IMG/VR virus record: IMGVR_UViG_3300032308_002246
Location: 109,963 to 173,962 of that record
DNA: 64,000 nucleotides
Reading direction: 5' to 3' (one strand)
Origin: a virus
This document shows positions 11,375 to 44,328 of the stretch, in pieces (position 1 is the first letter of the stretch; each line of letters begins with the position of its first letter). The position numbers and the translations under genes were made by a program. The notes below the pieces were generated by a model that was not told the origin of the DNA, ran no database searches, and saw only the letters and a list, made by a program, of their open reading frames with translations.

Positions 11375-11381
11375 GGGGCAC

Positions 11382-22322: not shown

Positions 22323-22384
22323 AAAGCCAGCGAAAACAACAGACTAGAGCCGATTAAAGACCGTCTTGTGAGATAATTAGCCGT

Positions 22385-22567: not shown

Positions 22568-25500
22568 TGGCTTATAAGAAAATACTCTTTCGCCGCGATA
22601 CGTCTTCAAATTGGGCTAGCGCAAACCCTATTTTGGCTGCTGGTGAAATCGGTCTTGAGTCCAACACCAACAAGATAAAACTTGGTAATGGCTCGACTAG
22701 ATGGAATGCCCTGTCGTATTTTTACGGAAGTCTTGACACTACTGGAATTGACGCACTTAGCGACGTAGTCATAACAAGTGCACAAAATGGCGATTTTCTT
22801 CGCTGGAACGGAACTGCCTGGGTAAACGACCCGGTCAATCTTGGGGATGACACGGTCGGCAGCTTTGTCCAGAACCTTGTTGCTGGAACCGGCGTAACGC
22901 TAACCAACAACACTGGCGAAAAGGCTACTCCAACCGTGGCTATTGGCCAGGCTGTTGCAACTTCATCTTCTGTACAATTTGCCGCAGTTACTGCACCAGT
23001 TATCGGTAACGCAAGCACCGCAAGCTCGCTGCAAACAGCGCGAACAATTCAAGTTAGCGGCGATGTTTCTGGTTCTGCATCTTTTGATGGTTCACAAAAC
23101 ATAAACATCACTTCGGAAATCCAGCCAAACTCGGTAGCTCTTGGCACTGACACCACTGGTGATTACGTAACCTCACTTGTTGCTGGAACTGGCGTTACCC
23201 TTAGCAATAACTCAGGTGAATCAGCATCACCAACTATTGCAATTGGCCAAGAAGTAGCAACCTCATCATCCGTTACATTTGCTCACATTAATGGAAACGT
23301 AACAGGAAATTTGACAGGAAATGCCTCAACCGCTGCTGCACTACAAACACCTCGAACTATTTCTCTTACTGGTGATTTGTCTGGTTCTGTGTCATTTGAT
23401 GGTTCAAACAATGTTTCAATTACCACTACGATTGAACCAAACTCTGTAGCTCTTGGCACCGACACAACCGGAAACTACATGGCCGAAGTTACTGGTGGCA
23501 CTGGTATAACAGTTACCCACACCCCAGGTGAAGGTTCAAACGCAACAATATCAATCGGGCAGGCTGTAACAACAGCAGATACACCAACTTTTGCTGGAGC
23601 ATACCTAGACGCAATAAGAGTCGGTGTTACAAACGCTAATACGATTGACACTGCATCTGGTGGTTTGACTCTTGACTCAACTGGTGGAACAACAACTGTT
23701 GATGACAACTTGGTAGTTACTGGAACGCTGACAGTATCTGGTTCTGTTGCATACATAAGCACAACCAACTTAGAAGTTGGAGACAGTGTAATTATTCTTA
23801 ATCACGATGAAACTGGGTCTCCATCTCAGAACGCCGGTATAGAGATTGAACGCGGAACATCAACAAATGTCGTTCTTCATTACAACGAAACTTCTGATGT
23901 TTGGGAATTAACCAACAATGGTTCTACTTATTCTCCAATCGAAACTACTTCGACAGTAGAAACAAAGATTAAGCAACAGCTGTGGCTTAATGACGTATAT
24001 GCCGCAACAACTGGCGTGCTTCCAAACTCTCCTACATATACCGCTGGCAGCGCAGACGCAAACGGTGGAACTGGTGTTGGAGCAAAACTCACAGCAACAA
24101 CAAACGGAGAACTATCAATTGACGGCGCTCCAGCCGCTTTGAACTACCGAGTTCTAGTCAAGGACCAAGCCAACAATTTACACAACGGAATCTACAAAGT
24201 AACCGCAGCTGGTTCACCATCTACAACATGGGAACTGACAAGAGCAGCAGACTTTGATAACTCAACATTTGGTCAGGTTACTTACGGAAAATCAGTAAGA
24301 ATAGCGACTGGCGATATAAACATATTGCAAACTTTCATCCTCACGTCGTTTGGTACTGTTTACCTAAACGAGCTTGAGGAAATGGTTCACGTAATTGGGA
24401 CTGACCCAATTTCATGGTCTCAAGCGAGCGGCAAGGCAGTTCTGATTCCAGGCAATGGTTTGGAAATAACAAACAATGTTCTGGCGCTTCCATCAATCAC
24501 TCAGTCGAATACAGCATCAACGTCCGGTGGTTTTAATTTTGTACAGGGCGTAAACGTTGACTCATATGGTCGCTTACTTGGTGTTACAACAAATGATGTT
24601 CTTATTGACTTGGGCATAAATACTCAGGGCGACTATGTACAAAGCGTCTCTGCTTCAGTTAATACTGGCATTACAGTTTCTGGAACTGGCGAGGGCGCAA
24701 CTGTATCTGTTGGTTCAAATGCAACTCCAGACAACACAATTAACGCAATAGTTATGCGTGATGGAAGCGGAAACTTTATTGCTGGGAACATTACAGCAGA
24801 ACTGACTGGAAACGCTTCATCAGCGAACACCCTTTATGCCACACGTTCAATCGGTTTAACCGGAGACCTAAGCGGCTCTGTTTCGTTCGACGGTTCTCAA
24901 GATGTTGTTATAAATGCAATAATTGAATCAAACTCAATCGCTCTTGGTGGTGACACAACTGGCGACTATGTAAGCACGATTACTCAGGGCACTGGTGTAA
25001 CGGTGACTGGCGGTACTGGTGAGACATCAACGCCAACAATCGCAATTGGTCAAGATGTTGGCACCAGCTCTTCCGTAACTTTCGCACAAGTTAATGCACT
25101 TCTTGTCGGAAACGTAAATGGAAACGTAACTGGGAATGTCACTGGAAACGTTAATGGAAACGTCACTGGAACCCTAACTGGAAATGTTTTTGGAAATGTT
25201 ACTGGTAGTTCTGGAACCGTAACCTCAATAGGCACGCATGGACTGGATGCGCTTTCAGACGTAACTGCTCCGTCGCCAGCATCGGGCGAGTTCTTGAAAT
25301 GGAACGGCTCTGCTTGGGTGCCAGATGTAATCGATTTGTCAACAGACACAAGTGGAAACTTTGTTTCCTCAATCAATGCTGGAACTGGTGTTTCGCTTAC
25401 GAACGGTGTTGCCCAAGAAGCTGGAACACCAACCATAAACATTGGTCAGGCTATAGGCACAACAAATTCACCGTCGTTTGCAAACCTTTCAGTAGGTAAT

Positions 25501-26694
25501 GCACAGGTAAACGCAACAAATCTTACCTATAGCGGTGGCACCAACCTTGCTACAGTAACCGCCATTGACCACGGTCTTGCCATTGGGGCAAGGATAACGG
25601 TATCAGGAGCGACTCAAACTGGATACAACGGAACATATTCAATCGTTTCGGTTCCAACTTCTTCAACATTTACATACCAACCAGCAGTTGGTCCATCTGC
25701 AAACATAGCCTCTGGCACATATTTGGTTTATGTTGCTGGCGCTATAACTTTTGAAGGTTCAACTGATGACTCGTTTGAAACAACGATTGTTGCTACAGAC
25801 CCAACGGCAGACAGAATTATTTCTTTGCCAGATGCGACAACTCAATTAGTTGGTAGAGACACAACAGATACTCTTACGAACAAAACTCTAACAAGCCCAA
25901 CTATCACTGGTGTATCACCAGTAATCACTTTGGGTGGAGATTTGAGTGGTTCAGCTACATTCACAGACCTTGGCAACGCAACGCTTACAGCGACAATCGC
26001 TGCAAACTCTGTGGCTCTTGGAACAGATACAACCGGTAGCTACGTTGAAAGCCTTGTACAGGGTACTGGTGTTACAATCATCAACAACTCAGGCGAAAGT
26101 GCAACACCGACAATCTCCATTGGTCAGGCAGTTGGGACCAGTGCATGCGTTCAGTTTGACACTTTGACTGTAACAAACCTGTTTGCAACAAACAGCCAGT
26201 CAAGCAATGCGTCTGAGCTGAATGTTTCGGACAGCAAGATTGTTTTGAATGCAGGAACTACTGGCGCTCCAACGGTTAATGGTTCTATCATCATTGATAG
26301 AGGCTCAAGTGCAAGCGTTGAAATTCGATGGAACGAAACCAGTGACAGATGGGAAGCAACATCTGACGGCACGACATACACTCAAATAGCTGCTGGCGCA
26401 AAAATGACCATTGGAGAAACACCTCCTTCGTCGCCAGCAAATGGTGACTTCTGGTTTGAGTCGGACTCCGCTATCACGTTCGTTTATTACGACTCGTACT
26501 GGGTTCAAATTGGTTCATCCGGAATTGGTGCTGTAACAACGGCATCCGCTCCATCTAACCCTGCAAACGGCCAAATATGGTTCAATAGCACAACCGACGA
26601 AATGTATGTTTATTATGACGGCGCATGGGTCCTGGTAAATAGCGCAACTAACACCAGTGACATAGAAATTGCGTCTATCATGGGAGCGTATTAA
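22567..26694 (+). CDS. Long tail fibre protein with Mtd/hyaluronidase-N-like N-terminal domain
   Basis: N-terminal 'RRDT..NW...NPILA.GEIG.E..T..K.G.G...W..L.Y'. Same shaft modules as 16353, plus (GNV[TN])n. Confidence 0.85.
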   Translation: MAYKKILFRRDTSSNWASANPILAAGEIGLESNTNKIKLGNGSTRWNALSYFYGSLDTTGIDALSDVVITSAQNGDFLRWNGTAWVNDPVNLGDDTVGSFVQNLVAGTGVTLTNNTGEKATPTVAIGQAVATSSSVQFAAVTAPVIGNASTASSLQTARTIQVSGDVSGSASFDGSQNINITSEIQPNSVALGTDTTGDYVTSLVAGTGVTLSNNSGESASPTIAIGQEVATSSSVTFAHINGNVTGNLTGNASTAAALQTPRTISLTGDLSGSVSFDGSNNVSITTTIEPNSVALGTDTTGNYMAEVTGGTGITVTHTPGEGSNATISIGQAVTTADTPTFAGAYLDAIRVGVTNANTIDTASGGLTLDSTGGTTTVDDNLVVTGTLTVSGSVAYISTTNLEVGDSVIILNHDETGSPSQNAGIEIERGTSTNVVLHYNETSDVWELTNNGSTYSPIETTSTVETKIKQQLWLNDVYAATTGVLPNSPTYTAGSADANGGTGVGAKLTATTNGELSIDGAPAALNYRVLVKDQANNLHNGIYKVTAAGSPSTTWELTRAADFDNSTFGQVTYGKSVRIATGDINILQTFILTSFGTVYLNELEEMVHVIGTDPISWSQASGKAVLIPGNGLEITNNVLALPSITQSNTASTSGGFNFVQGVNVDSYGRLLGVTTNDVLIDLGINTQGDYVQSVSASVNTGITVSGTGEGATVSVGSNATPDNTINAIVMRDGSGNFIAGNITAELTGNASSANTLYATRSIGLTGDLSGSVSFDGSQDVVINAIIESNSIALGGDTTGDYVSTITQGTGVTVTGGTGETSTPTIAIGQDVGTSSSVTFAQVNALLVGNVNGNVTGNVTGNVNGNVTGTLTGNVFGNVTGSSGTVTSIGTHGLDALSDVTAPSPASGEFLKWNGSAWVPDVIDLSTDTSGNFVSSINAGTGVSLTNGVAQEAGTPTINIGQAIGTTNSPSFANLSVGNAQVNATNLTYSGGTNLATVTAIDHGLAIGARITVSGATQTGYNGTYSIVSVPTSSTFTYQPAVGPSANIASGTYLVYVAGAITFEGSTDDSFETTIVATDPTADRIISLPDATTQLVGRDTTDTLTNKTLTSPTITGVSPVITLGGDLSGSATFTDLGNATLTATIAANSVALGTDTTGSYVESLVQGTGVTIINNSGESATPTISIGQAVGTSACVQFDTLTVTNLFATNSQSSNASELNVSDSKIVLNAGTTGAPTVNGSIIIDRGSSASVEIRWNETSDRWEATSDGTTYTQIAAGAKMTIGETPPSSPANGDFWFESDSAITFVYYDSYWVQIGSSGIGAVTTASAPSNPANGQIWFNSTTDEMYVYYDGAWVLVNSATNTSDIEIASIMGAY

Positions 26695-26710
26695 ATGACT
26701 GGAGCAATCA

Positions 26711-27016
26711 ATGGCTAATTCAGCTAAAGCACTATTTAGAGGCGCCGCTACGACAAATACAAGCACGACTCTTTACACCGTGCCATCCTCGACTACAACG
26801 ATAGTGACGAACATAATTGTCACAAATACGGCTGCAACGGATGGAACTTTTACGCTGTCGCTAGACGATGTTGCACTTGCATCTGCCGTAGTGGTTCCAG
26901 CAAAGGGTATTTTCACCCTTGACATCAAACAGGTTTTAGCTACAACAGAAACAATTAAGGGTGGCGCTAATGCCACCTCTATCAGCTTCCACATCAGTGG
27001 AATGGAGATTGCATAA
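26711..27016 (+). CDS. Small tail-associated protein
   Basis: 'TTLYTVP...T.V.NI.V.N...FHISG.EI' pattern typical of fibre-adjacent genes. Confidence 0.55.
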   Translation: MANSAKALFRGAATTNTSTTLYTVPSSTTTIVTNIIVTNTAATDGTFTLSLDDVALASAVVVPAKGIFTLDIKQVLATTETIKGGANATSISFHISGMEIA

Positions 27017-29772
27017 TGGCAGCAAACCAAATCCCTGCAGGTCTGACACCAATAACACCTGAAGAGGTGTTGATTGACCCAGTCCAAAAGCTACGCATCT
27101 CTCAGCCTCAGGCGCTGATTGACACCGACTTTGAATATGGTACCCAGATTTCAAAGTGGGAAAACCATATAAATGTTGGAGCTCGACCATTCGTTTTTGA
27201 CACAGCTTCGCCAATTTCGGGCATAACCGCAATTACAATGAGCACTTCTTCAAGAACTGTAACCGTGTCACTTCCAAGCACTGCAGGCATTGCTGTTGGA
27301 ACTCCAATTTCGGTAAGAGACACATACCTTGCTATTGCAAACGGCAACTACTTGGTTGAGTCTGTTACATCAAACACTTCGTTTACATACACAGGCAAAG
27401 CCGTGAACACTGGCTCAGTTACATCAATTCTTGATGCAAACAAGACGTTAATTTTTACTGGTTCACTTTATTCTGGTGCTCAAATCGGTGGAGCTCCAAC
27501 TGTTTCATACTCTGGAAACGCAGTTACCGTAACAACAACAATCCCCCACGGTTTGTCTCTTGGTAATGAAGTAGCCATCACGGGTATAACAACTTCGGGA
27601 ACAAACCCTCCAAACGGTTCAAACTTCGTTGCAAGAATTATCAGCGCAACTCAATTTGTTGTTTATGTTCCGGCAACACCAACAGGAACACTGACGGCAA
27701 CTTCTGCTGCTGTATATGTCGTTCCGTCTGGTCAGTTTTTGCACAGACCATTTGACGGCGGTGTTATCTTCACGAATAACGGCACTTCAAACTATGAATC
27801 AGCAATTCGTCAAACTCGTCGTTACTTCCGTTACCAGTCAGGTAAGGGTATCCAGATGTCATCTGGAACTCTGTTGAAGCCAGCTCTACAGGTTGACTCA
27901 TTGACTTATTCAGCCGGAACCGGTCTCGTAACTGTACAGACAAAAGAAAAGCACAACCTCTATCCAGGTTCCGTAATCGTTACTTTTGGCGCGACAGAAG
28001 CTGGGTACAACGGTACTTTCTCTGTTTACACAATCACTGGTTATAACACCTTTACATACACCCCTCAATCAACGCCATCAGCAGCAACCGCTTCTGGGCC
28101 ATACTACATAACCGTTACTGGATGGTATGGTAATGAAAACCGACTCGGATTGTTTGATGACCAAAACGGAGTGTTCTTTGAGTTTGACGGTCAGACACTT
28201 TACGCAGTTAAGCGCTCATCAACTTTCCAAATTTCTGGCAAAGTAACGGCCACACTTGGTTCTTGCACCATTACTCAAACAAATGCTGCATTCCCGACAA
28301 GATTTTCAAAACAACTTGTCATCGGAGACAGAATTGTTCTCCGTGGAGCGTCTTACAGAATTACAGACATAGCAAGCGACACCTCAATGACGATTAGTCC
28401 TGCGTATCGTGGAGCAACAACCGACTACGTAATCTGCTCAAGAACCGTAGACGAAAGATACGCACAATCAGAGTGGAACCTTGACAAGCTTGATGGAACC
28501 GGAGCATCTGGTTATAACGTCGACCTTTCCAAGATGCAAATGTTCTATATTGACTACTCTTGGTATGGAGCTGGCGCTATCCGCTGGGGTATGCGTGCAA
28601 CAAATGGCAAGGTAACTTACTGCCACAAGATTGCCAACAACAACACCAACTCTGAAGCGTACATGCGTTCGGGAAACCTTCCAGCAAGATACGAGACGGT
28701 TTCGAATCCTCCGTTTACATACATGGCAGCATCGCTTGCAAATAATGGTGTAACCATGACAGTAAACAGCACAGCTGGGTTTCCTAACTCTGGGACTCTT
28801 GCGTGTTTCAACCAGACACATGGTTACGAATACATCAACTACACAGGCAAAACAGCAACCACGTTCACTGGTTTGACAAGACAGCAAACAGGAAACGCTT
28901 CACTAGCTTTAACAATTGCAGCTGGGTCAAATGATGGAACCGTAGCTTCGACTTCTGGTCTCCAGGTTGGACAAAGAGTTAGCGCAACCGCTGTTCCAGA
29001 CGGAACATTTATCCAGGAAATCAATGGATTGAATGTCAAGTTGAGTGCTGCGGTGACCGGTGCTAACCCAACGGTGAACGTAATCCCAATGGGAACAAAC
29101 GCTGCAATCGCTTGGACCTACTCAGCAACAAACCCAATCGGTGTTGAACTTGCTTTCCCAACATATGCTCCATCCATTTCTCACTGGGGTACTTCAGCAA
29201 TCATGGACGGCCGTTACGACGATGATAAGTCGCTCGTGTTCACATACGGTTCGGCTTCGGCTGTTACTGTAGCTGCTGGCGCAACGAACGCTCTTCTTGC
29301 AATCAGAGTTGCTCCTTCAGCGGATAACGGTACTTCTGCAGCATTTGGCGAAAGAGAACTTATCAACAGAATGCAGTTGGTTCTACGAGCATTGGACGTA
29401 ACAACAACAACGGCTTCGGCAAACTTGTTGATTACTGCTGTGCTAAACGGTGTTCCTTCGGGAGCTAGAACATGGGCCAAGCCATACACTGTTACTTCGT
29501 CACTTGCTCAAGTAGCAGACTATGGTGGTACAACAACAACTGTTTCTGGTGGTGAAGTGACTGGTGGTTTCTTTGTAGGCACTGGTGCAAACTCTATTGA
29601 CCTTGCAGCAGTTAGAGACCTTGGTAACTCAATTCTTGGAGGCGGTGGAACGACGACGACGGCTGGCATCTATCCAGACGGTCCAGACGTCATTCACGTT
29701 CTCGTGCGTAACCTCGGTGCCGCATCGGTAACCGTGTTCGCTCGTCTCTCATGGACTGAAGCACAGGCTTAA
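27016..29772 (+). CDS. Large virion structural/fibre protein
   Basis: Repeated 'HGL..G..V.I.G.....NG...V.....T.FTY' beta modules; 'RQT.RYFRYQSGKG'; 'YSWYGAG.IR.G' lectin-like segment. Confidence 0.7.
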   Translation: MAANQIPAGLTPITPEEVLIDPVQKLRISQPQALIDTDFEYGTQISKWENHINVGARPFVFDTASPISGITAITMSTSSRTVTVSLPSTAGIAVGTPISVRDTYLAIANGNYLVESVTSNTSFTYTGKAVNTGSVTSILDANKTLIFTGSLYSGAQIGGAPTVSYSGNAVTVTTTIPHGLSLGNEVAITGITTSGTNPPNGSNFVARIISATQFVVYVPATPTGTLTATSAAVYVVPSGQFLHRPFDGGVIFTNNGTSNYESAIRQTRRYFRYQSGKGIQMSSGTLLKPALQVDSLTYSAGTGLVTVQTKEKHNLYPGSVIVTFGATEAGYNGTFSVYTITGYNTFTYTPQSTPSAATASGPYYITVTGWYGNENRLGLFDDQNGVFFEFDGQTLYAVKRSSTFQISGKVTATLGSCTITQTNAAFPTRFSKQLVIGDRIVLRGASYRITDIASDTSMTISPAYRGATTDYVICSRTVDERYAQSEWNLDKLDGTGASGYNVDLSKMQMFYIDYSWYGAGAIRWGMRATNGKVTYCHKIANNNTNSEAYMRSGNLPARYETVSNPPFTYMAASLANNGVTMTVNSTAGFPNSGTLACFNQTHGYEYINYTGKTATTFTGLTRQQTGNASLALTIAAGSNDGTVASTSGLQVGQRVSATAVPDGTFIQEINGLNVKLSAAVTGANPTVNVIPMGTNAAIAWTYSATNPIGVELAFPTYAPSISHWGTSAIMDGRYDDDKSLVFTYGSASAVTVAAGATNALLAIRVAPSADNGTSAAFGERELINRMQLVLRALDVTTTTASANLLITAVLNGVPSGARTWAKPYTVTSSLAQVADYGGTTTTVSGGEVTGGFFVGTGANSIDLAAVRDLGNSILGGGGTTTTAGIYPDGPDVIHVLVRNLGAASVTVFARLSWTEAQA

Positions 29773-29774
29773 TC

Positions 29775-30554
29775 ATGGCAGCGATTGACTTCCCAGCAGA
29801 TGCTCAATCCGGCGACCAGCACGTAAGCGCTGGCAAGACCTGGACATATAACGGTTCTGGTTGGGTGCTAGTAACTATCCCGACAGCAATGTTTACAGCA
29901 GACTCGGTAAGCGGCTCGTCTCTTGTTGATGGAACCGTTGGGTTGCAAAAAATATTTAACGAAGGAGCAGGTCAGATAATCGTTTTTAACGGTTCTGGAG
30001 TTGCAACTGCAGTTGACTCAACTGGCGATGTGGTGATAAACGCTTCCGGTGTTTCTGCTATTTCTGCAGGAGCAATTGTTAATGCTGACGTAAATGCTTC
30101 TGCGGCAATCGATAAAACAAAGATTGCTGGAACAGCGGTTGTTCTTACGGACTCGTCTGTAGTCACCTCGACAATGATTGCTGACTCAACAATCGTTGAT
30201 GGCGACATCAGTGCTACAGCAAATATTGCTCAGGGAAAAATCGCAGATATCTTGACAAACGCGCAAGCCGCAAGCTACACACTTGTACTCGCCGACAAGA
30301 ATAAGATTGTCGAAATGGGTGTTGGTTCCGCAAACGACTTGACCGTCCCCCCAAACTCATCAGTGGCCTTTCCAATCGGCAGCCAAATTCAGGTTCTCCA
30401 GACAGGGACTGGTAAGACAAGAATTTTGGCAGGCGCTGGTGTCACCGTGAACGCAACTCCAGGAGTGTTCATGAGGGCGCAGTGGTCAGCTGTTACGCTA
30501 CTAAAGAGAGCATCAGATACTTGGGTGGCAACGGGAGACCTTTCGGCTTCATAA
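29775..30554 (+). CDS. Short fibre/adaptor ending in the shared C-terminal domain (cassette 2)
   Basis: 'IVNADVNASAAI..TK' repeats, then SYTLVLAD...ANDLTVP...TWVATGDLSAS, homologous to the end of 16353. Confidence 0.75.
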   Translation: MAAIDFPADAQSGDQHVSAGKTWTYNGSGWVLVTIPTAMFTADSVSGSSLVDGTVGLQKIFNEGAGQIIVFNGSGVATAVDSTGDVVINASGVSAISAGAIVNADVNASAAIDKTKIAGTAVVLTDSSVVTSTMIADSTIVDGDISATANIAQGKIADILTNAQAASYTLVLADKNKIVEMGVGSANDLTVPPNSSVAFPIGSQIQVLQTGTGKTRILAGAGVTVNATPGVFMRAQWSAVTLLKRASDTWVATGDLSAS

Positions 30555-30557
30555 CTT

Positions 30558-31592
30558 ATGGCAGTTTCAAGCAACAACCAAATCGATTCTGGAGGTAAAG
30601 CCCCTTCAGCGCCAACGATTGGTACCCCACTGCTTGCAACAGGAACTTCAGCAAGCGTAGTTTTCACCCCATCGACATATATTGGTAAAGGCACAGTAAC
30701 CTACAGAGCCGCTGCAGACTCCGGTCAAACTGCTACTGGTAATAGCAGCCCAATTGTTATCACTGGGTTGACGCAGGGTTCAACAAGAACATTTACTGTT
30801 ACGGCTGTTTCGTCAAACGGAGTTGAAACATCTTCCGAAGTAAGTGCCTCGCTGGTTATGGGAGTTGGTCCATCTGCACCAACAATCGGAACAGCAGTCA
30901 TAGTTCAGAACGTGGACAGAGCAATTGATGTTCCGTACACCGCAGGAGCAACTGGGACAAACCCAACAGTAACCTATACGGCAACATCAAGTCCTAGTGG
31001 ATTAACCGCTACCGGTGCAAGCCCAATACGCATAACTGGACTCACGGCAGGAACCGCATACACATTTACGGTTTCAGCTTCTACGGAATTTGGAACTGCA
31101 ACTTCCGCCGCTTCCAACTCGGTGACAGCTGGAAATAGACCTGGTGCTCCGACTATTGGTACCGCTACTGGCGGAAACGCTCAAGCGACTGTCACATACA
31201 CCGCAGGAGCTGCTGGGACGGGCGCTACGACATTTACGGCCATTTCATCTCCAGGGAACGTTCAGGCCTCTGGAGCGTCTCCTATCACCGTTACAGGCCT
31301 CACCAACGGCCAAGCATACACTTTCACTGTAAGAGCAACCAACTCCTATGGATTTCAGACCTCTGGGTCTTCAAACTCCGTAACACCAGTTGCCCCTCCG
31401 TACTTCCCACCGTTCTTTCCGCCGTTTTTCCCACCTTACTTTCCGCCGTTTTTCCCACCATTTTTCCCTCCGTATTTCCCACCATTCTTTCCTCCTTTCT
31501 TTCCTCCTTATTTCCCACCCTTCTTCCCGCCTTTCTTTCCACCATTCTTTCCGCCATTCTTCCCGCCGTACTTCCCTCCGAGGTTCAAGTAG
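30558..31592 (+). CDS. FN3-domain 'tip' protein with (PP[FY]F)16 tail (cassette 2 putative substrate)
   Basis: Three FN3-like repeats (P.APTIGT...SPI..TGLT.G..YTF.V.A), then 16 tetrapeptide units. Confidence 0.8.
   Translation: MAVSSNNQIDSGGKAPSAPTIGTPLLATGTSASVVFTPSTYIGKGTVTYRAAADSGQTATGNSSPIVITGLTQGSTRTFTVTAVSSNGVETSSEVSASLVMGVGPSAPTIGTAVIVQNVDRAIDVPYTAGATGTNPTVTYTATSSPSGLTATGASPIRITGLTAGTAYTFTVSASTEFGTATSAASNSVTAGNRPGAPTIGTATGGNAQATVTYTAGAAGTGATTFTAISSPGNVQASGASPITVTGLTNGQAYTFTVRATNSYGFQTSGSSNSVTPVAPPYFPPFFPPFFPPYFPPFFPPFFPPYFPPFFPPFFPPYFPPFFPPFFPPFFPPFFPPYFPPRFK
31395..31586 (+). repeat. Coding 12-nt tandem repeat encoding PPYF/PPFF x16
   Basis: 16 units, the last being PPRF. Synonymous codons vary (CCA/CCG/CCT/CCC, TTC/TTT). 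Confidence 0.95.
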
Positions 31593-31595
31593 AAA

Positions 31596-32174
31596 ATGAA
31601 ATCAATTTATGACATTGACTTGAAGTCATGGGATGGCGAACGAGATGTCCTCAAAGACTGTGAAGGTAAAGTCACACTAATAATCAATACAACTGGTCAT
31701 TGTGGAAATGCGCCACAGTTTGGGATTATTGAGGGTCTTTACCAAAAGTACAAAGACCTTGGATTCAATGTTGTCGCTGTTCCTACAAATGACTTTTGCG
31801 GCAATGGAGTCACTTACGGAGAATACGCAGACGGCGTAAAAGATGCAAAGCACGCTCGAGATTATGGTGTCAATGAATGGAACGCTTCGTTTGATTTTTC
31901 GGAGCTAGTTGTATCTTGGCATGAAAAGCTAGAGGAAAAGCAAAATACCCCCCATGAGCTTTACCAAAATCTTATGACCAATGAGGAAAAAAGACTAAAG
32001 CAAGACATGACTGGGAACTTTGAAAAGTTTTTAATCAACAAAAAAGGAGAAAGAGTAGCAAGACTCACCAACGGTGTACTACTTGAATATGCGTACAATG
32101 ACGGTTATTGCGAGTCTCCAGAAGTTGAGCTTGAAAAACTATCTAAAATGATTGAAGACGAGTTGGCAAAATGA
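31596..32174 (+). CDS. Glutathione peroxidase-like protein
   Basis: GKVTLIIN..GHCGN.PQF, VPTNDF, GNFEKFLI.K.G. Confidence 0.8.
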   Translation: MKSIYDIDLKSWDGERDVLKDCEGKVTLIINTTGHCGNAPQFGIIEGLYQKYKDLGFNVVAVPTNDFCGNGVTYGEYADGVKDAKHARDYGVNEWNASFDFSELVVSWHEKLEEKQNTPHELYQNLMTNEEKRLKQDMTGNFEKFLINKKGERVARLTNGVLLEYAYNDGYCESPEVELEKLSKMIEDELAK

Positions 32175-33064
32175 CGACAATTGACACATATCTAAAAGGT
32201 GACTACAAAAAAGCTTACGAAGTTATTCACCCCATTTCCCTTTATGACATCCCTATTGCTTCTGCGGATGGAAAAGTAACAGATTTATTTGCTGACAGAA
32301 AAGGCAAAGTAACGCTTATATTCAACTGTGCTGCTGGTTGCGGAAATATCCCACAGCACGGAGTTATTGAGCAGCTGAACCAGCGCTATGCAAATGAAAA
32401 AGACTTTGACATCATTGCAGTAGTTGTTGATGACTTTCAGTGCCACGGATACAAAGAATTCCAAGATGGGATTGCCTCGTACTGTCAAACAGTTGGCCTT
32501 GACATGTCGGTTGGTGAATTTGCCAAAAAGTATGCTGAGGAAAATTTTGGCACCACTTTTGAGTTCTCAGAACTCACAAATGCCAGATTTGACAAAGTTA
32601 CATATGAATCAGATTTTGCGCCAAATACGAGCATAAACCAAACACAAAATTCTCTTTGGTACTACCTAACCGAGGGCTATAAGGCAACAGTTAACAAACT
32701 TGGCATACCCTACACAGGAGAAGTTGTTCCTTGGTCAAACGGACAAGAGGAGTACCTAGGTGGAGATGCTACAAAAGCATTCCCAATAACAGGAAATTTT
32801 ACAAAATTTTTGATTGATAGAACCGGAACTAAAACAAAGCGATACTCCAACGGCTTTCTTCTTGGAGAGCGAGATGTTGATGGCGAAATTTATCCTTGGC
32901 TAAACGAAAAGCTTTTAGATGATGGCAAAAAAGACTGGAAACCGTTTACAGGCAAAAAAGAAAACGGTGAGCCATGGGTCGAACCAAGCGCCAAAGGACA
33001 AGGCGTTGAATTATCGCTTGATTTGATTAGCCGTGACATTGAAGATTACCTAGCTCAACAGTAA
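32171..33064 (+). CDS. Glutathione peroxidase-like protein (divergent, with insertions)
   Basis: GKVTLIFNCAAGCGNIPQH...GNFTKFLIDRTG. Confidence 0.7.
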   Translation: MTTIDTYLKGDYKKAYEVIHPISLYDIPIASADGKVTDLFADRKGKVTLIFNCAAGCGNIPQHGVIEQLNQRYANEKDFDIIAVVVDDFQCHGYKEFQDGIASYCQTVGLDMSVGEFAKKYAEENFGTTFEFSELTNARFDKVTYESDFAPNTSINQTQNSLWYYLTEGYKATVNKLGIPYTGEVVPWSNGQEEYLGGDATKAFPITGNFTKFLIDRTGTKTKRYSNGFLLGERDVDGEIYPWLNEKLLDDGKKDWKPFTGKKENGEPWVEPSAKGQGVELSLDLISRDIEDYLAQQ

Positions 33065-33088
33065 TTAAAAACAATGTAGTCTGAGTAC

Positions 33089-33706
33089 ATGGAATCACCA
33101 TGGAAAATACAGCCTGGATTTTTTGGAACTGGTCCTGAAAACATTCATGTAATTAAGGATTTCATTGATAAAAAAGATGTTGAAACCATATCCTCATTTG
33201 CAAAAACCATAAATGAGTGGTCAAACGGCTCAGACGAAGACATCTTTGATGAAAACGGTGTATGCACTTATAGCGCTGCATACTGGAATGACAGGCAGTG
33301 TACTTGGGAAATTCTGCAAAGAATAAATAAAGATGTCTATGATTTGATTGATTTCTATTTAGACAAAATGGCTGTTACTGCAGGCGAAATTTTTGGATGC
33401 AAACTACAGAAACGACCCCCCTGCATTGTTAGATGGTTCAAGGGTATTGAACAACGTCCTCATGCTGACAAGCAAATGAACGATGGGTCCCCAAATCCTT
33501 TCCCCACATACGATATAAACTCGCTTTTCTACTGGAATAATGACTTTGAAGGTGGCGAGCTTTATTACCCACAGCACGATGTTGTCGTGAAGCCAGAGCC
33601 TGGGCTAGCCGTAATCCACCCCGGAGACATAAACTATCTACACGGTGTCAAGCTCGTTACGAGCGGGGAGCGATACACCTCTCCGGCATTCTTTACAGTG
33701 GAGTGA
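33089..33706 (+). CDS. 2OG-Fe(II) oxygenase, P4H-like
   Basis: HAD...YWNNDFEGGEL...LHGV...RY. Confidence 0.9.
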   Translation: MESPWKIQPGFFGTGPENIHVIKDFIDKKDVETISSFAKTINEWSNGSDEDIFDENGVCTYSAAYWNDRQCTWEILQRINKDVYDLIDFYLDKMAVTAGEIFGCKLQKRPPCIVRWFKGIEQRPHADKQMNDGSPNPFPTYDINSLFYWNNDFEGGELYYPQHDVVVKPEPGLAVIHPGDINYLHGVKLVTSGERYTSPAFFTVE

Positions 33707-33707
33707 C

Positions 33708-34370
33708 ATGGGACAAGAACCGCGTTTTATAAATACTCCAAGAATTGGATTGTTTGTTGATTACTTGCCAAAAGAAGAATGGGAAGTAGTAAAAGAATAC
33801 TGCGAAAACAATGAGGCAAAATTTGAGTTCGTTGGGCACAATCCTGAAATTGGATGGAAAAAGAAAACACACTCACGTCACCCAGAGATAACTTTTCAAA
33901 CATCTTTTCTCCCAACCAAAGAGGAAATTGACTCCGGTGGTTACATGACCAATGGCGATAACTACAAGATTTCCATGCATGAACCAGCAGACGAGCAGGT
34001 TAAAAAAATATTGCTATGGATGTTGATAAATGTTAGAGACACAATAAAAACAACCTACGGCAATAAAACATACTTTGAAAGCGGCCCATGGTTGTCAATG
34101 GCCAAAGAAGGCGACAACATGGGGTTGCACTGCGATGGCGTGTTTCTGGACAAAGTTGGAGCTGTTACTGATTTTTCATGCGTTTACTATGTGAACGACG
34201 AATATGAAGGCGGAGAAATTTACATGCCAATTCTTGGCGTAGCTATTAAACCTAAAGCCAATTCTCTTCTAATTTGGTCTCACACTTGGCATGAAGACAT
34301 GGCTCACGGAGTTAGGCCAATCATTTCTGGAACTCGTTATATGTCGCAAGGGTTCTTTACCACTGTATAG
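33708..34370 (+). CDS. 2OG-Fe(II) oxygenase, P4H-like
   Basis: HCD...YVNDEYEGGEI...AHGV...RY. Start moved to ATG 33708. Confidence 0.88.
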   Translation: MGQEPRFINTPRIGLFVDYLPKEEWEVVKEYCENNEAKFEFVGHNPEIGWKKKTHSRHPEITFQTSFLPTKEEIDSGGYMTNGDNYKISMHEPADEQVKKILLWMLINVRDTIKTTYGNKTYFESGPWLSMAKEGDNMGLHCDGVFLDKVGAVTDFSCVYYVNDEYEGGEIYMPILGVAIKPKANSLLIWSHTWHEDMAHGVRPIISGTRYMSQGFFTTV

Positions 34371-34379
34371 ACTGTTGGC

Positions 34380-35045
34380 ATGAAAACAGAAATACTTAGT
34401 GACCCGCGCCTTGGGGTTCTTGTATACAAGAATGCACTGCCTAAAGAACTGGACATCATAAATAGGCTTGAGTCAACTATCGGAGACAGCACGACGATGC
34501 CTTTCATGTGGTGCGAGGCTCTTGTTGGTTATTCACAAAAGATGCCAGAGTATCGAGACTGTGTTGACTGCAAAATTGGACAGGTCCACATGGACCATCT
34601 GCACCATTACCCACAGTTCGCAGAGCTAAAGAACATTTACAACGACACGGCGAATGCAATCCGCGCATGCATGAATGATTATCAAAGCCGCTACAACATA
34701 AATATGGAGTATATGGAGGCAATTAACTTCGTTCGATACGGAGCGAATCAGCACTTCCAGGTCCACACTGACCACGGGTTTTCTTATACTTGCACAGTTT
34801 CTTCTGTCGTCTACTTCAATGACGACTATGAAGGCGGTGAGCTCTGGTTCCCTTACCTAGATTTGACATTCAAACCAGAAACTGGGGACATAGTGATGTT
34901 CCCGTCAACATTTATTTATGCACATGCTGCAAAACCAGTTACCAGCGGCGTTAAGTACTCTGGAGTAACGATGTTTGATTACAACGACAGGAATCACGAC
35001 ATCAAGGGAAGCTACGACGGAGTAAAGGCTCCAGCTGCTCAGTAG
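34380..35045 (+). CDS. 2OG-Fe(II) oxygenase, P4H-like
   Basis: HTD...YFNDDYEGGEL...AHAA...KYS. Confidence 0.9.
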   Translation: MKTEILSDPRLGVLVYKNALPKELDIINRLESTIGDSTTMPFMWCEALVGYSQKMPEYRDCVDCKIGQVHMDHLHHYPQFAELKNIYNDTANAIRACMNDYQSRYNINMEYMEAINFVRYGANQHFQVHTDHGFSYTCTVSSVVYFNDDYEGGELWFPYLDLTFKPETGDIVMFPSTFIYAHAAKPVTSGVKYSGVTMFDYNDRNHDIKGSYDGVKAPAAQ

Positions 35046-35593
35046 TGGCTGTTGTAGGCATCTACTCTCCGGGGGCTATGGGTTCTACCCTTGCTTATTC
35101 CTGTTCTGTAAATGGCCACAAAACAATATGGGCATCAGAGGGTCGTTCTGAAAAAACATTAATCCGTGCAAAAAAATTTGGCATAGAAGATGTCGTTTCA
35201 CTTGAAAACCTTTTGGGAAAAAGCGATTTTATATTCTCGATTGCCAGCAACTTTGACGCATTTGAATTTGCTCGTGTTATTGCATCAATGAGTTTCAAAG
35301 GAATCTATGTTGACTTCAATACCATGTATACAGATACCGACGGAACCGAACTTGAGAACATACTCACCCCAAATAAAATAAAGTACGTTGAAGGCGCACT
35401 TCGTGGCTGGCCAGTAAAAGAACCAGGAGAAGAAATAACCAGCGAGAAAACAATGTATCTATCTGGTCTACATGCGAATACAGTAAAAGAACTATTTGGA
35501 AATTTTTGGAGAATAAGAACCATGCCCAAATCAGCAAAATTGTTAAACCGAGTACTTGCAGAGGAGTTGGCGATTATCTATGGTCAAGGTTAA
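35045..35593 (+). CDS. NAD(P)-binding Rossmann protein (6PGD/HIBADH N-domain-like)
   Basis: VGIYSPGAMGS.LA, 'SDFIFSI', 'YVDFNT', 'YVEGA'. Confidence 0.7.
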   Translation: MAVVGIYSPGAMGSTLAYSCSVNGHKTIWASEGRSEKTLIRAKKFGIEDVVSLENLLGKSDFIFSIASNFDAFEFARVIASMSFKGIYVDFNTMYTDTDGTELENILTPNKIKYVEGALRGWPVKEPGEEITSEKTMYLSGLHANTVKELFGNFWRIRTMPKSAKLLNRVLAEELAIIYGQG

Positions 35594-36284
35594 TCTAAAG
35601 AGAACATACGATAATCCACCAGAAATAAGACAGTCACGAATAAACCGTGACTGGATGGATGAAACATATAAAAAGCACGCATACCAGTGCTTGCCAATGA
35701 CTTTTGCAAATGTATACGGATGGGAGCTAGTGCTCCCGCAGACAGTTATTGCTCAATGGGACGGCGGCAACACTGTTCCTACGATTCTTGAGGGCGAATC
35801 ATACGGTGGCAGACAGTTGGCCTACGGCGGAATAATAGGCATGGTTTCATTCTCTACAGGGTGGATTTTTGGGACAGACACTGGATACGAAACATTTATT
35901 GGTGGCTCACCCAACTATGTTAGAGAAGATGCACAGGCACTATCCGCAATCATTCCGAGTAGCTGGTGGCCAGATGAGTTCCAAATGAACTGGAAGATAA
36001 ACAAAGTAGGAGAACCAGTTGTTTTTGAAGCCGGTATGCCTTTTATGTTTTTTTCAATATTTGAAAGCAATGTATTAGAAAATGTAGATTTCACTGTTGA
36101 TAACCTTTGGGATGATAAAGAGCTAATGGATTCTCGACAAAAATACGGTGACTTGAAAATGAAGAACAATCAAGAGCAGCCATGGACCTGGACAAAAGGC
36201 ATAAAAACAGGACTTGATGCTGACGGCAACAAGATTGGTCCAACATTTACAGGGATGCCAAAACTGCAAATTCCAGGACAATAA
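35580..36284 (+). CDS. DUF6065-like protein
   Basis: 'R.WMD....HAYQCLP...AN..GWE...G.PN.......L..II...W....F.MNW.......V.F..G.P'. Recognised from memory. Confidence 0.65.
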   Translation: MVKVNLKRTYDNPPEIRQSRINRDWMDETYKKHAYQCLPMTFANVYGWELVLPQTVIAQWDGGNTVPTILEGESYGGRQLAYGGIIGMVSFSTGWIFGTDTGYETFIGGSPNYVREDAQALSAIIPSSWWPDEFQMNWKINKVGEPVVFEAGMPFMFFSIFESNVLENVDFTVDNLWDDKELMDSRQKYGDLKMKNNQEQPWTWTKGIKTGLDADGNKIGPTFTGMPKLQIPGQ

Positions 36285-36286
36285 CA

Positions 36287-36904
36287 ATGTCAATGCTTGA
36301 CTATAAAAATCTACTGCTTAAAAACATACATGTTATTGATAATTTTGCAACTGGTGAAGAATTATCAAAAATTCTTGATAGGTGTTATGAATTCTCAGAA
36401 TGGGACAACACCTGGCAGGAGTATGTAGGCGGTCAGGGATATACCGAAAGACCAGATTGCCAAGAAAGAAAAGACGTATCTTCTAGGGCATTGTCTTTGG
36501 TTTCCGCAACAGTCGGCAGGAGATTGTGTTTTCTTTATGAACCATACCTAAGAAAATACCCACCTGGCTCTTATCTAAAAATGCATGCGGATGCAGAGGG
36601 TTATTATGGAAGCAATCCAGAACCACTGAAAAACTACGACCCCACAAACCAAATGTCAGAAGTTCTAAATGAATGTTCATCAATTCTTTACCTGAATGAA
36701 GACTACGAAGGTGGAGAATTGTACTTTGAAGAATTTGACATGTTGATTAAACCCAAAGCCAATCAGCTGGTTTTCTTTCCAAGTGGCTCCGAATTTAGAC
36801 ATGAAGTGAAGCCGGTAATTAGTGGTGATAGATACACACTTGCGTCTTTTTATACGACTGATAAGCTGGTTGGCCTTCACGAGAAAATACGAGAACTTAT
36901 ATGA
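36287..36904 (+). CDS. 2OG-Fe(II) oxygenase, P4H-like
   Basis: HAD...YLNEDYEGGEL...RHEV...RY. Confidence 0.9.
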   Translation: MSMLDYKNLLLKNIHVIDNFATGEELSKILDRCYEFSEWDNTWQEYVGGQGYTERPDCQERKDVSSRALSLVSATVGRRLCFLYEPYLRKYPPGSYLKMHADAEGYYGSNPEPLKNYDPTNQMSEVLNECSSILYLNEDYEGGELYFEEFDMLIKPKANQLVFFPSGSEFRHEVKPVISGDRYTLASFYTTDKLVGLHEKIRELI

Positions 36905-37116
36905 AACTTGGAAAATACGACTCTCTTATGGCAAAAAACAGAGCTGCGCGATTCTTGGCTGCGTCAATAGGGGAGACGAGCCAGTTGATGACTCTCGAGA
37001 ATATGTCTCTTGTCTATTCTGGGGAAAACCCATATGAAGAAGGAACCATAGAGCACAATGCCTTCAGGCTGTTGTCTAGCGAGTATTCAGCATTGGAAGC
37101 CCTAAAAAATGGATGA
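36901..37116 (+). CDS. Small hypothetical protein
   Basis: ATGA-coupled ORF in the enzyme operon. Confidence 0.55.
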   Translation: MKLGKYDSLMAKNRAARFLAASIGETSQLMTLENMSLVYSGENPYEEGTIEHNAFRLLSSEYSALEALKNG

Positions 37117-37297
37117 GCCACAGGATTTTAAAATGAGCACCAGAAAAGGTGAAGCCATAACAGACACCGAAGAGTGGGATAACGAGATTATTGAATGGGA
37201 CCCAAGCACTGGTGTTTACTATGTTGCTGGTAAGCCGGTATCAATGTGTCAGGGTGTAGCAATGTTTGATGTTAAGGATAATGATGAGCAAGTATGA
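37109..37297 (+). CDS. Small acidic hypothetical protein
   Basis: Overlap-coupled ORF. Confidence 0.5.
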   Translation: MDEPQDFKMSTRKGEAITDTEEWDNEIIEWDPSTGVYYVAGKPVSMCQGVAMFDVKDNDEQV

Positions 37298-37565
37298 CCC
37301 TGTTGCTGATTTAGAGTATCGCTCCGAGCAGCTAGCAGCATATCTATTCATTCTTGGATTTGATGAATCACGCTTTGACGAGGTCACGATTGACGACTGT
37401 ATTAATGCGATTAGAGATAGGTACCGCTACGACCATGACACGGAAATCGATTCAGATGTAAAAGACTACATAAAAAGACAGAACATTACACTTACAAGAA
37501 ATGTCCGTCGTGCTTGGTTTGATGTACAAGTAGCATTGCATGAGGTGCAAAATGGAACAAAGTAA
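37281..37565 (+). CDS. Small helical hypothetical protein
   Basis: AAGGA SD before ATG 37281; overlap-coupled. Confidence 0.55.
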   Translation: MMSKYDPVADLEYRSEQLAAYLFILGFDESRFDEVTIDDCINAIRDRYRYDHDTEIDSDVKDYIKRQNITLTRNVRRAWFDVQVALHEVQNGTK

Positions 37566-38286
37566 AAGATACGAACCAGAGGTTTCTTTTGACTTCAGTT
37601 CACTGCAGTTTGACTGGGAACAATATGCAGACCAGTGCAACCGCGAGGATGGTGGGCATTCTGTTGCTATAGCTGAATATCTTTTTAACAAGGTTGGCAT
37701 TGATAGGAGAAACATTGCCACAGGTGGAGCAAGCGACTACGAGTTTGTAGTTCACTACCCAAGACCAAACCTGTCAAGTGCTTATGGTCAAGCTCAATGG
37801 ATGTCCATCCTCATGATTCTCGGCATCATGGATATATCCAAAAAGAAAAATGTATTGGCAGTTTCTGGTGGTTTAGATAGATTTAGGCTGAAGGTGTTCA
37901 AGTCGCTACACGGCGCAAACATCACATTTCTGAATAACAAAAAACTTAGTTTGTACGAAAAATTCCAAGACCCTATTGACGACTACAACGTTGTAACTAT
38001 GCAGGATTTTGAGAAACACCCAAACAACAAGTACGACATGATGCTTTCGTGGTCTCAGGACATGGAGAATCCACTGATTCCAATAAGTTCTTTTGTAGAC
38101 AGACTTGAAGACAATGGAATTCTGATAATTCAAAACACATCTGACAGCATGTTTTTATACAACAATCACACCAAAGCAACACCAATTTGGGGATATCACG
38201 AAGCTCTTAAAAATATTGGCGGCTGCAGTGTCTACCATATTCCAGTTTTTTACGGAATCACAATCGTTGTAAAGAGCGCAACATGA
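37552..38286 (+). CDS. Class I SAM-dependent methyltransferase-like protein
   Basis: 'KKNVLAVSGG', 'KYDMML', 'L..NGILIIQN' and terminal 'G.TIVVK' as in O-methyltransferase folds; degenerate. Confidence 0.55.
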   Translation: MEQSKRYEPEVSFDFSSLQFDWEQYADQCNREDGGHSVAIAEYLFNKVGIDRRNIATGGASDYEFVVHYPRPNLSSAYGQAQWMSILMILGIMDISKKKNVLAVSGGLDRFRLKVFKSLHGANITFLNNKKLSLYEKFQDPIDDYNVVTMQDFEKHPNNKYDMMLSWSQDMENPLIPISSFVDRLEDNGILIIQNTSDSMFLYNNHTKATPIWGYHEALKNIGGCSVYHIPVFYGITIVVKSAT

Positions 38287-38957
38287 TTATAAAAGATAAT
38301 GCACTAGCTGATTCTTTATATCAAGAACTGCTATCAGATGATGCTTTTTTCCCTGAGTCAATGGGTTCTGACGAGAGATTAGCAACAGAGCTCAATTCAT
38401 ATCACTACGAAAAATCTAGTTGTTTTGCTCCCTATATGTTTTGGGATGGATGGTGGGCAACCCCAGCAAACACATTGAGGAAGAAAGTTGTTCAAGCAAT
38501 TTGGGAAGACAACCTCCCATGCGATACAAGCGAAATACTTGGAATCGAGTATTGGACAAGAACTTATCTACCTGGCCAGTATCTGGATGTGCATGTTGAT
38601 GAGGATACATTTCTTTATCAGGAATCAAAAACATTTAGCGGTCCGTTGACAGGCTCAATACTCTACGGAGTAGATAATGACAATGGTGGTTTTGTAGAAA
38701 TATACAACAAAGCAGTTTTGAAAGATGGAGAAAAATTAGCTATTGAAGCAGAAAGCATAAACTCTTTGTTGGTTCCGGTAGAAGAGCGAGAGAGAATAGC
38801 CTACAAAGGGAACCGTGTAATTATTTTTGATACCGGCCATGTGGTTCATGGAACAACTCCAGCAAAGAGTGGAATCAGGCAAGTAATGGTAACAAATGTA
38901 TGGCATCGCAACAATCCCCCAACAGCTCTAAAGTTGGGAGAATTTTTTTATGAGTGA
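38283..38957 (+). CDS. 2OG-Fe(II) oxygenase
   Basis: GIEYW...HVDED...GG...NRVIIFD...HG....G.R....N.W. Confidence 0.8.
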   Translation: MIIKDNALADSLYQELLSDDAFFPESMGSDERLATELNSYHYEKSSCFAPYMFWDGWWATPANTLRKKVVQAIWEDNLPCDTSEILGIEYWTRTYLPGQYLDVHVDEDTFLYQESKTFSGPLTGSILYGVDNDNGGFVEIYNKAVLKDGEKLAIEAESINSLLVPVEERERIAYKGNRVIIFDTGHVVHGTTPAKSGIRQVMVTNVWHRNNPPTALKLGEFFYE

Positions 38958-39852
38958 TGTTAAAAAGGTAAACCTTTTATCAATTGACATATTTAAAACA
39001 AAAATTAATGACATTGACAACCAGCGGCTGTTGCAAGAGATTTTAAAATCAACCAATGATATTGATGATTCATTTATTGAAAATAAATATCATACTTATT
39101 ATGAAGACAAAAGGTATCCGTTTGGTTCTGCTGAGTCGGAAAAACTAATAAACAAGTTGGCAGAAGCAGTTTCTGGTTCTTTAAACAAAGAAATGGTGCT
39201 TAGTAGCATTTGGACACTAACTCTTGGTTATGGACAGTCGGTATCTGCTCACTCGCATAAATCAAACACTCACCTTCGTCCAGAAGAGTACTTTTCAATT
39301 GCCTATTACCCAAGCGCCCCCAAGGGAAGCGCAGACTTGATATTTATGGTTAATGCCGGAAACACTATAGAAAAGTCTGTTGAACTAACACCGGAAACTG
39401 GTGACCTAATTATTTTCAACTCTTATTTAATGCATATGACCAATAGGCACGGCAATAAAGAAGAACCTCGAGTCGTTATAAGCGCAAATTTTTCTCCGAA
39501 ATACCCGAATTCAACACCAACTCAGGATTGGAGCGCTTACGCAAGACACCCAGAGGACAGTGAAATTATCTACGATAAACGTTACTCATTAACGATACGT
39601 ACTCCCTTTGGCAAGGAAGATGCAACACTTGGAATCAAAGGTGATATTGCGGAAATATTTAATCCAACCGGAAAATACTTTATAGAAAAATTTATTGAAA
39701 CAGAAGATTCATTCAGTTCTGAATTTTCTGTTGATGTGCCAATGGTTACCACTGTTAGTATTCAGTTGTCGTTTACTGAAAACAGGGCCATTGAGGGCTC
39801 TATTTTTATTGGTGAATTTGCTAAATACCATGTGAGTGGGGTGGTGTTGTGA
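38950..39852 (+). CDS. Putative 2OG-Fe(II) oxygenase (HxH type) with C-terminal extra domain
   Basis: W.......HSH...S.AYY......L.F...P..GDLIIF.SYL.H......R.VISAN. Confidence 0.75.
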   Translation: MSDVKKVNLLSIDIFKTKINDIDNQRLLQEILKSTNDIDDSFIENKYHTYYEDKRYPFGSAESEKLINKLAEAVSGSLNKEMVLSSIWTLTLGYGQSVSAHSHKSNTHLRPEEYFSIAYYPSAPKGSADLIFMVNAGNTIEKSVELTPETGDLIIFNSYLMHMTNRHGNKEEPRVVISANFSPKYPNSTPTQDWSAYARHPEDSEIIYDKRYSLTIRTPFGKEDATLGIKGDIAEIFNPTGKYFIEKFIETEDSFSSEFSVDVPMVTTVSIQLSFTENRAIEGSIFIGEFAKYHVSGVVL

Positions 39853-41637: not shown

Positions 41638-41655
41638 TCGGCTATCATACACCGT
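41638..41655. promoter_or_regulatory. Putative bidirectional leaderless promoter (overlapping -10 boxes)
   Basis: TATCAT (+, 41643-41648) lies 7 nt before ATG 41656. TATGAT (-, 41649-41644) lies 6 nt before ATG 41637. Confidence 0.6.
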
Positions 41656-44326: not shown

Positions 44327-44328
44327 AG

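Follow-up and report, generated by a model that had tools for sequence, protein, structure and literature searches.

The giant virus PBCV-1 encodes a prolyl 4-hydroxylase (P4H) together with proline-rich repeats which are able to serve as substrate (Eriksson et al. 1999, as cited in PMC9301287). In phages, 2-oxoglutarate (2OG)-Fe(II) oxygenase genes occur in multiple copies in T4-like cyanophages (Sullivan et al. 2010, PMC3037559), and S-SCSM1 carries 24 copies (PMC9602691). Metabolic, DNA-repair or regulatory roles have been proposed for them; the cyanophage papers name no protein substrate (PMC3037559, PMC9602691). The function of the phage enzymes "has not been specifically investigated" (PMC9602691) and remains "cryptic" (PMC9301287). 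Here we describe a locus in a 64,000-nucleotide stretch of DNA from an uncultured phage, referred to below as the window (positions 109,963 to 173,962 of IMG/VR record IMGVR_UViG_3300032308_002246, a complete virus record of 173,962 bp that carries terminal repeats). In this locus a gene lying among fibre-like genes (30558..31592, + strand) encodes a protein with a C-terminal tail of Pro-Pro-Phe/Tyr-Phe (PP[FY]F) units, and is followed by an island of 2OG-Fe(II) oxygenase genes. Since the tail travels with two hydroxylase-like enzymes and a DUF6065 protein, it is probably their substrate; the chances are about even that the tail of this predicted fibre-associated protein is hydroxylated by the co-inherited cassette.

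The proline/aromatic tail and its relatives

The open reading frame (ORF) at 30558..31592 (+) encodes 344 amino acids. The N-terminal part (30558..31394, +) carries a conserved SGGK motif at its N-terminus and three FN3 domains, which are recognised by PF00041 (44.5 bits against a Pfam cut-off of 25) and modelled by AlphaFold2 as three beta-sandwich domains with a per-residue confidence (pLDDT) above 90. This 278-aa folded part is joined to a tail of 64-66 residues (31395..31592, +) which is read directly from the sequence as (PP[FY]F)15, PPRF, K and a stop codon. The units are arranged as four PPYF-PPFF-PPFF blocks, two PPFF, one PPYF and one PPRF, followed by K and TAG, all in frame with the ORF. 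The tail is composed of P, F and Y only, plus one R and one K; glycine is absent. The ATG of the downstream gene is at 31596, which leaves a gap of 3 nt after the stop codon.

A degenerate DNA pattern covering four units has 12 overlapping matches in the tail and none in 100 dinucleotide-preserving shuffles, and a scan of the whole 173,962-bp genome found it in the tail alone. Tandem Repeats Finder reports periods of 12, 24 and 36 nt in the repeat, with matches of just 74-77%. Proline is encoded by CCA (10), CCG (12), CCT (9) and CCC (1), and phenylalanine by TTC (17) and TTT (9); in the neighbouring structural genes CCA accounts for 69% of Pro codons. It should be noted that CCG makes up 37% of Pro codons in the repeat versus 10% in these neighbours, and that TTC is favoured over TTT. 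Either the founding unit's history or selection against repetitiveness at the DNA level may lie behind this bias. Open alternative frames across the repeat were considered as extra genes and dismissed; they are judged to be a by-product of its C/T-rich composition.

Two IMG/VR orthologues with the same architecture, L003 (83% nucleotide identity) and L069 (75%), were compared with the window protein. In the tail, 33 synonymous and no non-synonymous codon differences separate the window from L003, and 25 synonymous and one non-synonymous difference separate it from L069. The FN3 part has 22 and 61 non-synonymous differences, respectively. The number of units (16) and the Tyr positions are also conserved in this comparison. 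Because the changes in the tail are mostly synonymous, the tail is under the strongest constraint of any part of the protein in this lineage and is not a free-running linker. The repeat is maintained at the protein level. A preliminary description made from the sequence alone had argued as much from the mixed codons, and its reading of the repeat and of the 3-nt distance to the next gene was exact. It had also pointed out a 12-residue super-period. The 12-residue Tyr period is present in the window tail and in L003, but relatives have super-periods of five units or are irregular, which rules it out as a general structural rule.

Across the wider clade the number of units varies from 4 to 21, while the TPVAPP junction, the PPxFK end and the N-terminal motif are invariant in the alignment. 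One homologue (P0037) reads PPYFPPYF and then continues in a different frame, rich in Ser, His and Arg, to another stop, which points either to a mistake in assembly or to a frameshift that occurs naturally in the slippery C/T-rich repeat.

The repeat module is virus-enriched: a search with the four-unit pattern matched at least 120 contigs of IMG/VR versus 14 contigs, all from metagenome-assembled genomes, in a set of 185,579 prokaryote genomes. It is attached to at least 12 different N-terminal groups and is found in four architectures. In the first, to which the window protein belongs, an N-terminal domain is followed by the repeat and a PPxFK end. In the second and third, the repeat is followed by a Hint domain or by a small Cys-rich domain, respectively. 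In the fourth, a short repeat forms an internal linker between the FN3 domains of large proteins. The Hint domain in P0113 scores 29.9 bits (PT-HINT, cut-off 27.7) and lies directly after the repeat, and in the three Hint-bearing proteins that can be read confidently the residue before the Hint Cys is Lys, like the terminal K in the window. Given that the Hint domain lies directly after the repeat, the C-terminus of the repeat would be processed or activated in these relatives.

In a separate phage clade the repeat occurs as a hexad variant, [AS]PPxFF, with about 30 units followed by a Hint-like region which starts C-I-P-x-D-T. The representative protein (10826-12505, +, at locus L174; others are at L178, L182 and L202), in which Pfam does not recognise a Hint domain, ends in an acidic C-terminal extension, and six oxygenase genes and DUF6065 are found downstream.

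Co-occurrence of the tail and an oxygenase cassette

Three genes downstream of the tail gene form the core of the cassette. The first (33089..33706, +) encodes a 205-aa oxygenase with an HxD...H motif which scores 25 bits against PF13640, just below the cut-off; its nearest solved chains are collagen prolyl 3-hydroxylase 1 (P3H1), lysyl hydroxylase LH3 and the P4H of B. anthracis. The second (34380..35045, +) encodes a 221-aa P4H-like oxygenase (PF13640, 48 bits) which is closest to the B. anthracis P4H chains 3ITQ and 5HV0 (E = 6e-6). It has the H-x-D motif and a distal His, which is followed about 11 residues later by a Lys, the spacing found in collagen P4H. The third core member (35556..36284, +; probable start at the ATG at 35580) is a DUF6065 protein (PF19541, 147.7 bits). 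Its AlphaFold2 model has a dUTPase beta-barrel fold according to Foldseek (E ~1e-4, target TM-scores 0.56-0.72, about 10% identity). Full-text literature searches found no mention of DUF6065. Its homologues (59-95% identity) are all on phage-sized contigs and are close relatives only, so the search offers no independent bacterial context.

Variable oxygenase genes accompany the core. These include a 2OG-Fe(II) oxygenase present in few loci (33645..34370, +; PF13640, 37.8 bits) and a P4H/P3H-like oxygenase (36287..36904, +; 51.9 bits) whose nearest solved chain is P3H1 (E = 1.2e-7), with further oxygenases up to position 44991. PF13640 is above its cut-off for the proteins starting at 33645, 34380 and 36287, in which HxD and the distal His are visible. 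Among the island enzymes collagen P3H1 is matched at E = 1.2e-7 and 1.6e-4, and PiuC-type hydroxylases are also matched. These similarities hint that the island enzymes are of the peptidyl-Pro/Lys hydroxylase type. Ten of the 11 PF13640 matches in the genome lie within 21735..44991 of the window, directly after its two Pro-rich FN3 proteins. The second of these proteins (19949..20911, +) is a paralogue of the tail protein whose end runs from PGPPPPPP through a Cys-rich knob and SPPPP repeats to a Cys-rich terminus. It also has a P4H-like oxygenase gene shortly downstream (21735..22322, +), placed after a GNAT gene.

More widely, PF13640 is present in 43 of 49 records that bear the PPFF repeat, often in 5-11 copies, although these records are only 9-83% complete. 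When a profile built from the oxygenases of the window was used to place the nearest oxygenase relative to the PPFF gene, it was downstream at 80 loci, overlapping at 5 and upstream at 2. When only the 24 loci whose two flanks each reach at least 3 kb are counted, oxygenase genes number zero upstream and 35 downstream. When proteins are sorted by the form of the C-terminus, an oxygenase lies within 3 kb of 23 of the 25 tails that end in K and of all 11 tails with other short ends, and of 12 of the 20 proteins with a further C-terminal domain.

Synteny provides a control. The genome encodes a 918-aa structural protein which shares about 43% identity with cyanomyovirus virion proteins, including those of S-RSM4 and S-PM2, and its homologues (55-93% identical) were used to anchor 80 loci, 62 of them with at least 8 kb downstream. 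All 34 anchored loci with a Pro/Phe-tail gene carry at least four oxygenases within 8 kb. Where the tail gene is absent (28 loci), 20 loci have no oxygenase within this distance and eight have one to three; tail-less oxygenase clusters were sampled through these anchored loci. DUF6065 is present at 36 of 36 tail-bearing anchored loci and at no tail-less locus. Oxygenases were also typed by best match. The type represented by the 33089 gene is found at 31 of 31 PPFF-clade loci, 10 of 10 hexad-clade loci, 69 diverse loci and no tail-less loci, and the 34380 type at 27 of 31, 10 of 10, 68 and three, respectively. Among 13 clusters of N-terminal types with at least 5 kb of downstream sequence, six have the 33089 type together with DUF6065 and eight have the 34380 type.

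Not all genes of the island follow this pattern. Two genes of the glutathione-peroxidase fold lie between the tail gene and the first core oxygenase (31596..32174 and 32171..33064, both +; PF00255, 44.1 and 25.2 bits). They occur in only 4 of 11 sampled PPFF-clade loci and are accessory rather than core members. A third gene of this fold is found further inside the island (39849..40460, +; 52.7 bits). No glycosyltransferase was found among the window genes scanned.

Fibre context and candidate roles of the tail

The PPFF gene lies among fibre-like genes, as judged from PHROG tail matches. Directly upstream is a gene for a short tail-fibre protein of 259 aa (29775..30554, +) with PHROG minor-tail and tail-fibre C-terminal matches. 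This protein ends in a conserved C-terminal domain of about 100 aa (about 30225..30551, +), which is 55% identical to the C-terminus of a 1199-aa fibre (16353..19952), the gene upstream of the paralogous FN3 protein. It is also about 50% identical to the C-termini of minor tail proteins from Gordonia, Ruegeria, Brevundimonas and Shewanella phages. The domain has no Pfam family, and a search of PDB sequences gave nothing meaningful. This domain forms the end of the immediately preceding gene at 62 of the 88 PPFF loci for which such a gene is present, with upstream proteins ranging from 166 to 1817 aa. The window protein has the features of a family, newly defined here, of phage fibre-associated proteins with PP[FY]F tails: FN3-type domains lead into a terminal run of three or more PP[FYH]F units, and the gene comes directly after that of a fibre which carries the conserved C-terminal domain at its end. 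With a gene for the fibre domain directly upstream, the tail protein looks like a fibre partner; it is probably a partner of the upstream fibre and located in the virion. Complex prediction for the fibre C-terminal domain with residues 1-105 of the tail protein scored 0.00 in both runs and was not used either way.

The genes of this region are separated by 3 nt or overlap. Promoter and terminator scans found sites no more commonly than in shuffled sequence, and no convincing terminator was found between the genes. Megablast with 29775..33064 and tblastn with the tail protein, both with the low-complexity filter on, found no matches in a collection of cultured phages; the filter and the lack of cultured relatives account for this. 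A tblastn search with the fibre protein gave matches to the C-terminal domain only, with no Synechococcus or Prochlorococcus phage among the named groups. Gordonia phage Lilbeanie was considered as a parallel and set aside, as the gene after its matching fibre encodes a minor tail protein unrelated to FN3 or PPFF.

Under the proposed explanation, the 344-aa protein would be a small fibre-associated protein of the virion and the probable partner of the short tail-fibre protein encoded upstream. Its tail would form a proline/aromatic rod of tetrads, polyproline-II-like and about 20 nm long, ending in the conserved PPxFK. This rod would be the substrate of the downstream cassette, comprising the 33089 and 34380 oxygenases, DUF6065 and the variable extra oxygenases. 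The enzymes would hydroxylate many of the prolines, and perhaps the terminal Lys, during late infection, which would stiffen or functionalise the fibre tip ahead of assembly. A broader version of this model is offered tentatively: large uncultured aquatic phages might use a dedicated mobile modification cassette, made up of two collagen-type hydroxylases and the dUTPase-fold DUF6065, to turn a Pro/aromatic repeat at the fibre tip into a poly-hydroxylated rod. Such a rod would perhaps be further cross-linked or ligated via the terminal Lys, or via the Hint thioester in relatives.

The preliminary description had already proposed the tail as a multi-site substrate for the neighbouring enzymes, an idea that would be refuted if PPFF-tailed homologues commonly lacked oxygenases nearby. 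The search for such homologues found oxygenases nearly always close by and downstream. The comparative evidence agrees with hydroxylation of proline; the O-methylation that was also suggested is unsupported (ORF 37540 has no Pfam match), and no result favours chemistry specific to Phe or Tyr.

Several findings weigh against hydroxylation of the tail by the cassette. AlphaFold2 gives no confident structure for the tail (pLDDT ~45, with regular secondary structure absent). The enzymes resemble prolyl hydroxylases only weakly (E = 1e-4 to 1e-7), and the same oxygenase superfamily is also found in tail-less loci (the 8 of 28 above) and in cultured cyanophages. On a tree of the anchor gene the tail trait changes twice, by independent gains, and the 34-to-0 split comes down to these two events; both changes coincide with the cassette, and with only two contrasts the association cannot be significant by a sign test. 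The cluster types that lack the cassette mostly have the repeat as an internal linker or before a sizeable domain. Finally, in S-RSM4 the equivalent position after the structural gene is occupied by hli, petF, psbA and psbD. The region after the structural gene has been called hyperplastic in the cyanomyovirus literature (Millard 2009, as quoted in a citing paper). With unrelated accessory genes at the equivalent site in S-RSM4, the adjacency of tail and island could be architectural.

An alternative that accommodates these findings is that the tail stays unmodified and has a structural role (as rigid spacer, docking strand or hydrophobic adhesive tip of the fibre), and that the island is adjacent by way of an accessory-gene hot spot at the end of the fibre module, with linkage at the level of clades. 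The gene following the tail gene is highly variable, falling into 34 clusters, and in many relatives the repeat merely links to Hint, Cys-rich or FN3 domains. Metabolic or DNA-repair roles have been proposed for cyanophage 2OG oxygenases (PMC3037559), which would also fit this alternative. However, it is the two oxygenase types and DUF6065 that recur with the tail in two separate clades while other island genes vary, and they do so in six of the 13 N-terminal clusters counted above (the 34380 type in eight). The extreme polarity of the oxygenase genes, the P4H-like gene shortly downstream of the second Pro-rich FN3 protein and the peptidyl-Pro/Lys hydroxylase type of the enzymes likewise argue against an unmodified tail. 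We regard it as unlikely, but as the alternative to be taken most seriously.

It is more doubtful that the cassette is tied to the fibre module but acts on another target, with the tail protein as a co-functioning partner. The fibre encoded upstream (or the C-terminal domain of that fibre) is a candidate target, as are the second Pro-rich FN3 protein, a surface or ribosomal protein of the host and, in the case of DUF6065, a nucleotide. The fibre C-terminal domain is linked to the tail gene as tightly as are the enzymes, the dUTPase-like fold of DUF6065 is not obviously protein-modifying, and bacterial members of PF13640 include an EF-Tu hydroxylase (the PPHD entry 4IW3 is among the matches). 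However, the fibre domain also occurs in Gordonia and other phages, and the one such neighbourhood examined, that of Lilbeanie, contains no oxygenase. By comparison, no sequence of the immediate module other than the tail is extremely Pro-rich, and it is the presence of the tail that predicts the cassette.

PPFF occurs in the cyclic peptides antamanide and cyclolinopeptide A, and perfectly repeated units beside tailoring-type enzymes could suggest a multi-core precursor that is cut into cyclic or linear PPFF-type peptides and tailored by the oxygenases, in the manner of ribosomally synthesised and post-translationally modified peptides. This option, raised in the preliminary description, is highly improbable: no protease, macrocyclase or transporter was found in the neighbourhood, cleavage spacers between units are absent, unit numbers span 4 to more than 30, and the repeat forms one protein with three folded FN3 domains in a tail-fibre module. 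Relatives have Hint, Cys-rich or FN3 domains after the repeat, or carry it as an internal segment between folded domains.

If hydroxylation of the tail by the cassette is correct, the long-unexplained expansions of 2OG-Fe(II) oxygenases in aquatic phages would have, in the tail, their first protein substrate. The tail would also define a new type of structural repeat, made of proline and aromatic residues, and DUF6065 would gain a functional context. A cheap bench test is within reach, since the locus supplies a possible substrate, a 12-mer that can be synthesised, and two enzymes which track the tail and are candidates to act on it; candidate substrate peptides are PPYFPPFFPPFF and PPFFPPYFPPRFK.

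Other genes of the window were noted in passing. Beyond the oxygenase island, a 397-aa protein (46914..48107, -) is followed on the minus strand by one of 324 aa (45970..46944, -) whose central block is dense in Cys and Gly. Neither has a significant Pfam family; together they may be a further fibre-tip pair which faces the island. The endolysin is probably encoded at 52648..53418 (+), where a VanY-type D-Ala-D-Ala carboxypeptidase is joined to a peptidoglycan-binding domain. The host of the phage is presumably bacterial.

Comparison with known systems

No description of such a repeat in phages came up in full-text literature searches. The repeat and its fibre context, together with the cassette of two oxygenases and DUF6065 and with the Hint variants, appear to be undescribed.

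The likeness to Hint/Hedgehog-type proteins is confined to relatives in which Hint directly follows the repeat; the window protein stops at K344 and ends in PPRFK instead, and thus lacks what autoprocessing by Hint would involve. The mammalian peptides PR-39 and Bac5 adopt an extended polyproline-type conformation. They share with the phage tail a tetrad periodicity of PPxF/PPxR, and PR-39 contains PPFFPP and PPRFPPRF (PMC3995882). However, these proline-rich antimicrobial peptides are short, free and strongly cationic, whereas the phage tail is a stretch of 64 residues within a 344-aa protein and has none of these features.

Animal collagen and plant extensin combine long Pro-rich structural repeats with 2OG oxygenases of the PF13640 type, as does the window, where the modification is only predicted. 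In contrast to these proteins, the tail has no Gly-X-Y triplets of the collagen kind and none of the extensin motifs Ser-Pro(3-5) (including Ser-Pro4), YxY and VYK. About 40% of its residues are Phe, and its charge is limited to one R and one K. Extensin-like SPPPP is present in the paralogous protein (19949..20911) and not in the PPFF tail.

Like the T4-like cyanophages, the window phage has a large aquatic myovirus-type genome with many divergent PF13640 genes clustered beside structural genes. Unlike them it lacks psbA, which was not found in the phage genome.

The pairing of a virus-encoded prolyl hydroxylase with Pro-rich repeats of the same virus is an idea already known from PBCV-1. Both viruses encode a collagen-type prolyl hydroxylase (the type being a prediction in our case) and proline-rich tandem repeats. 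PBCV-1 differs in being a eukaryotic giant virus with repeats of the PAPK type, whereas the phage, whose host would be a bacterium, has Pro/aromatic tetrads which form the C-terminal tail of a putative fibre protein and are accompanied by two dedicated oxygenase types and DUF6065. If confirmed, phages would hydroxylate their own fibre tips, a modification which has so far been shown only in a chlorovirus.

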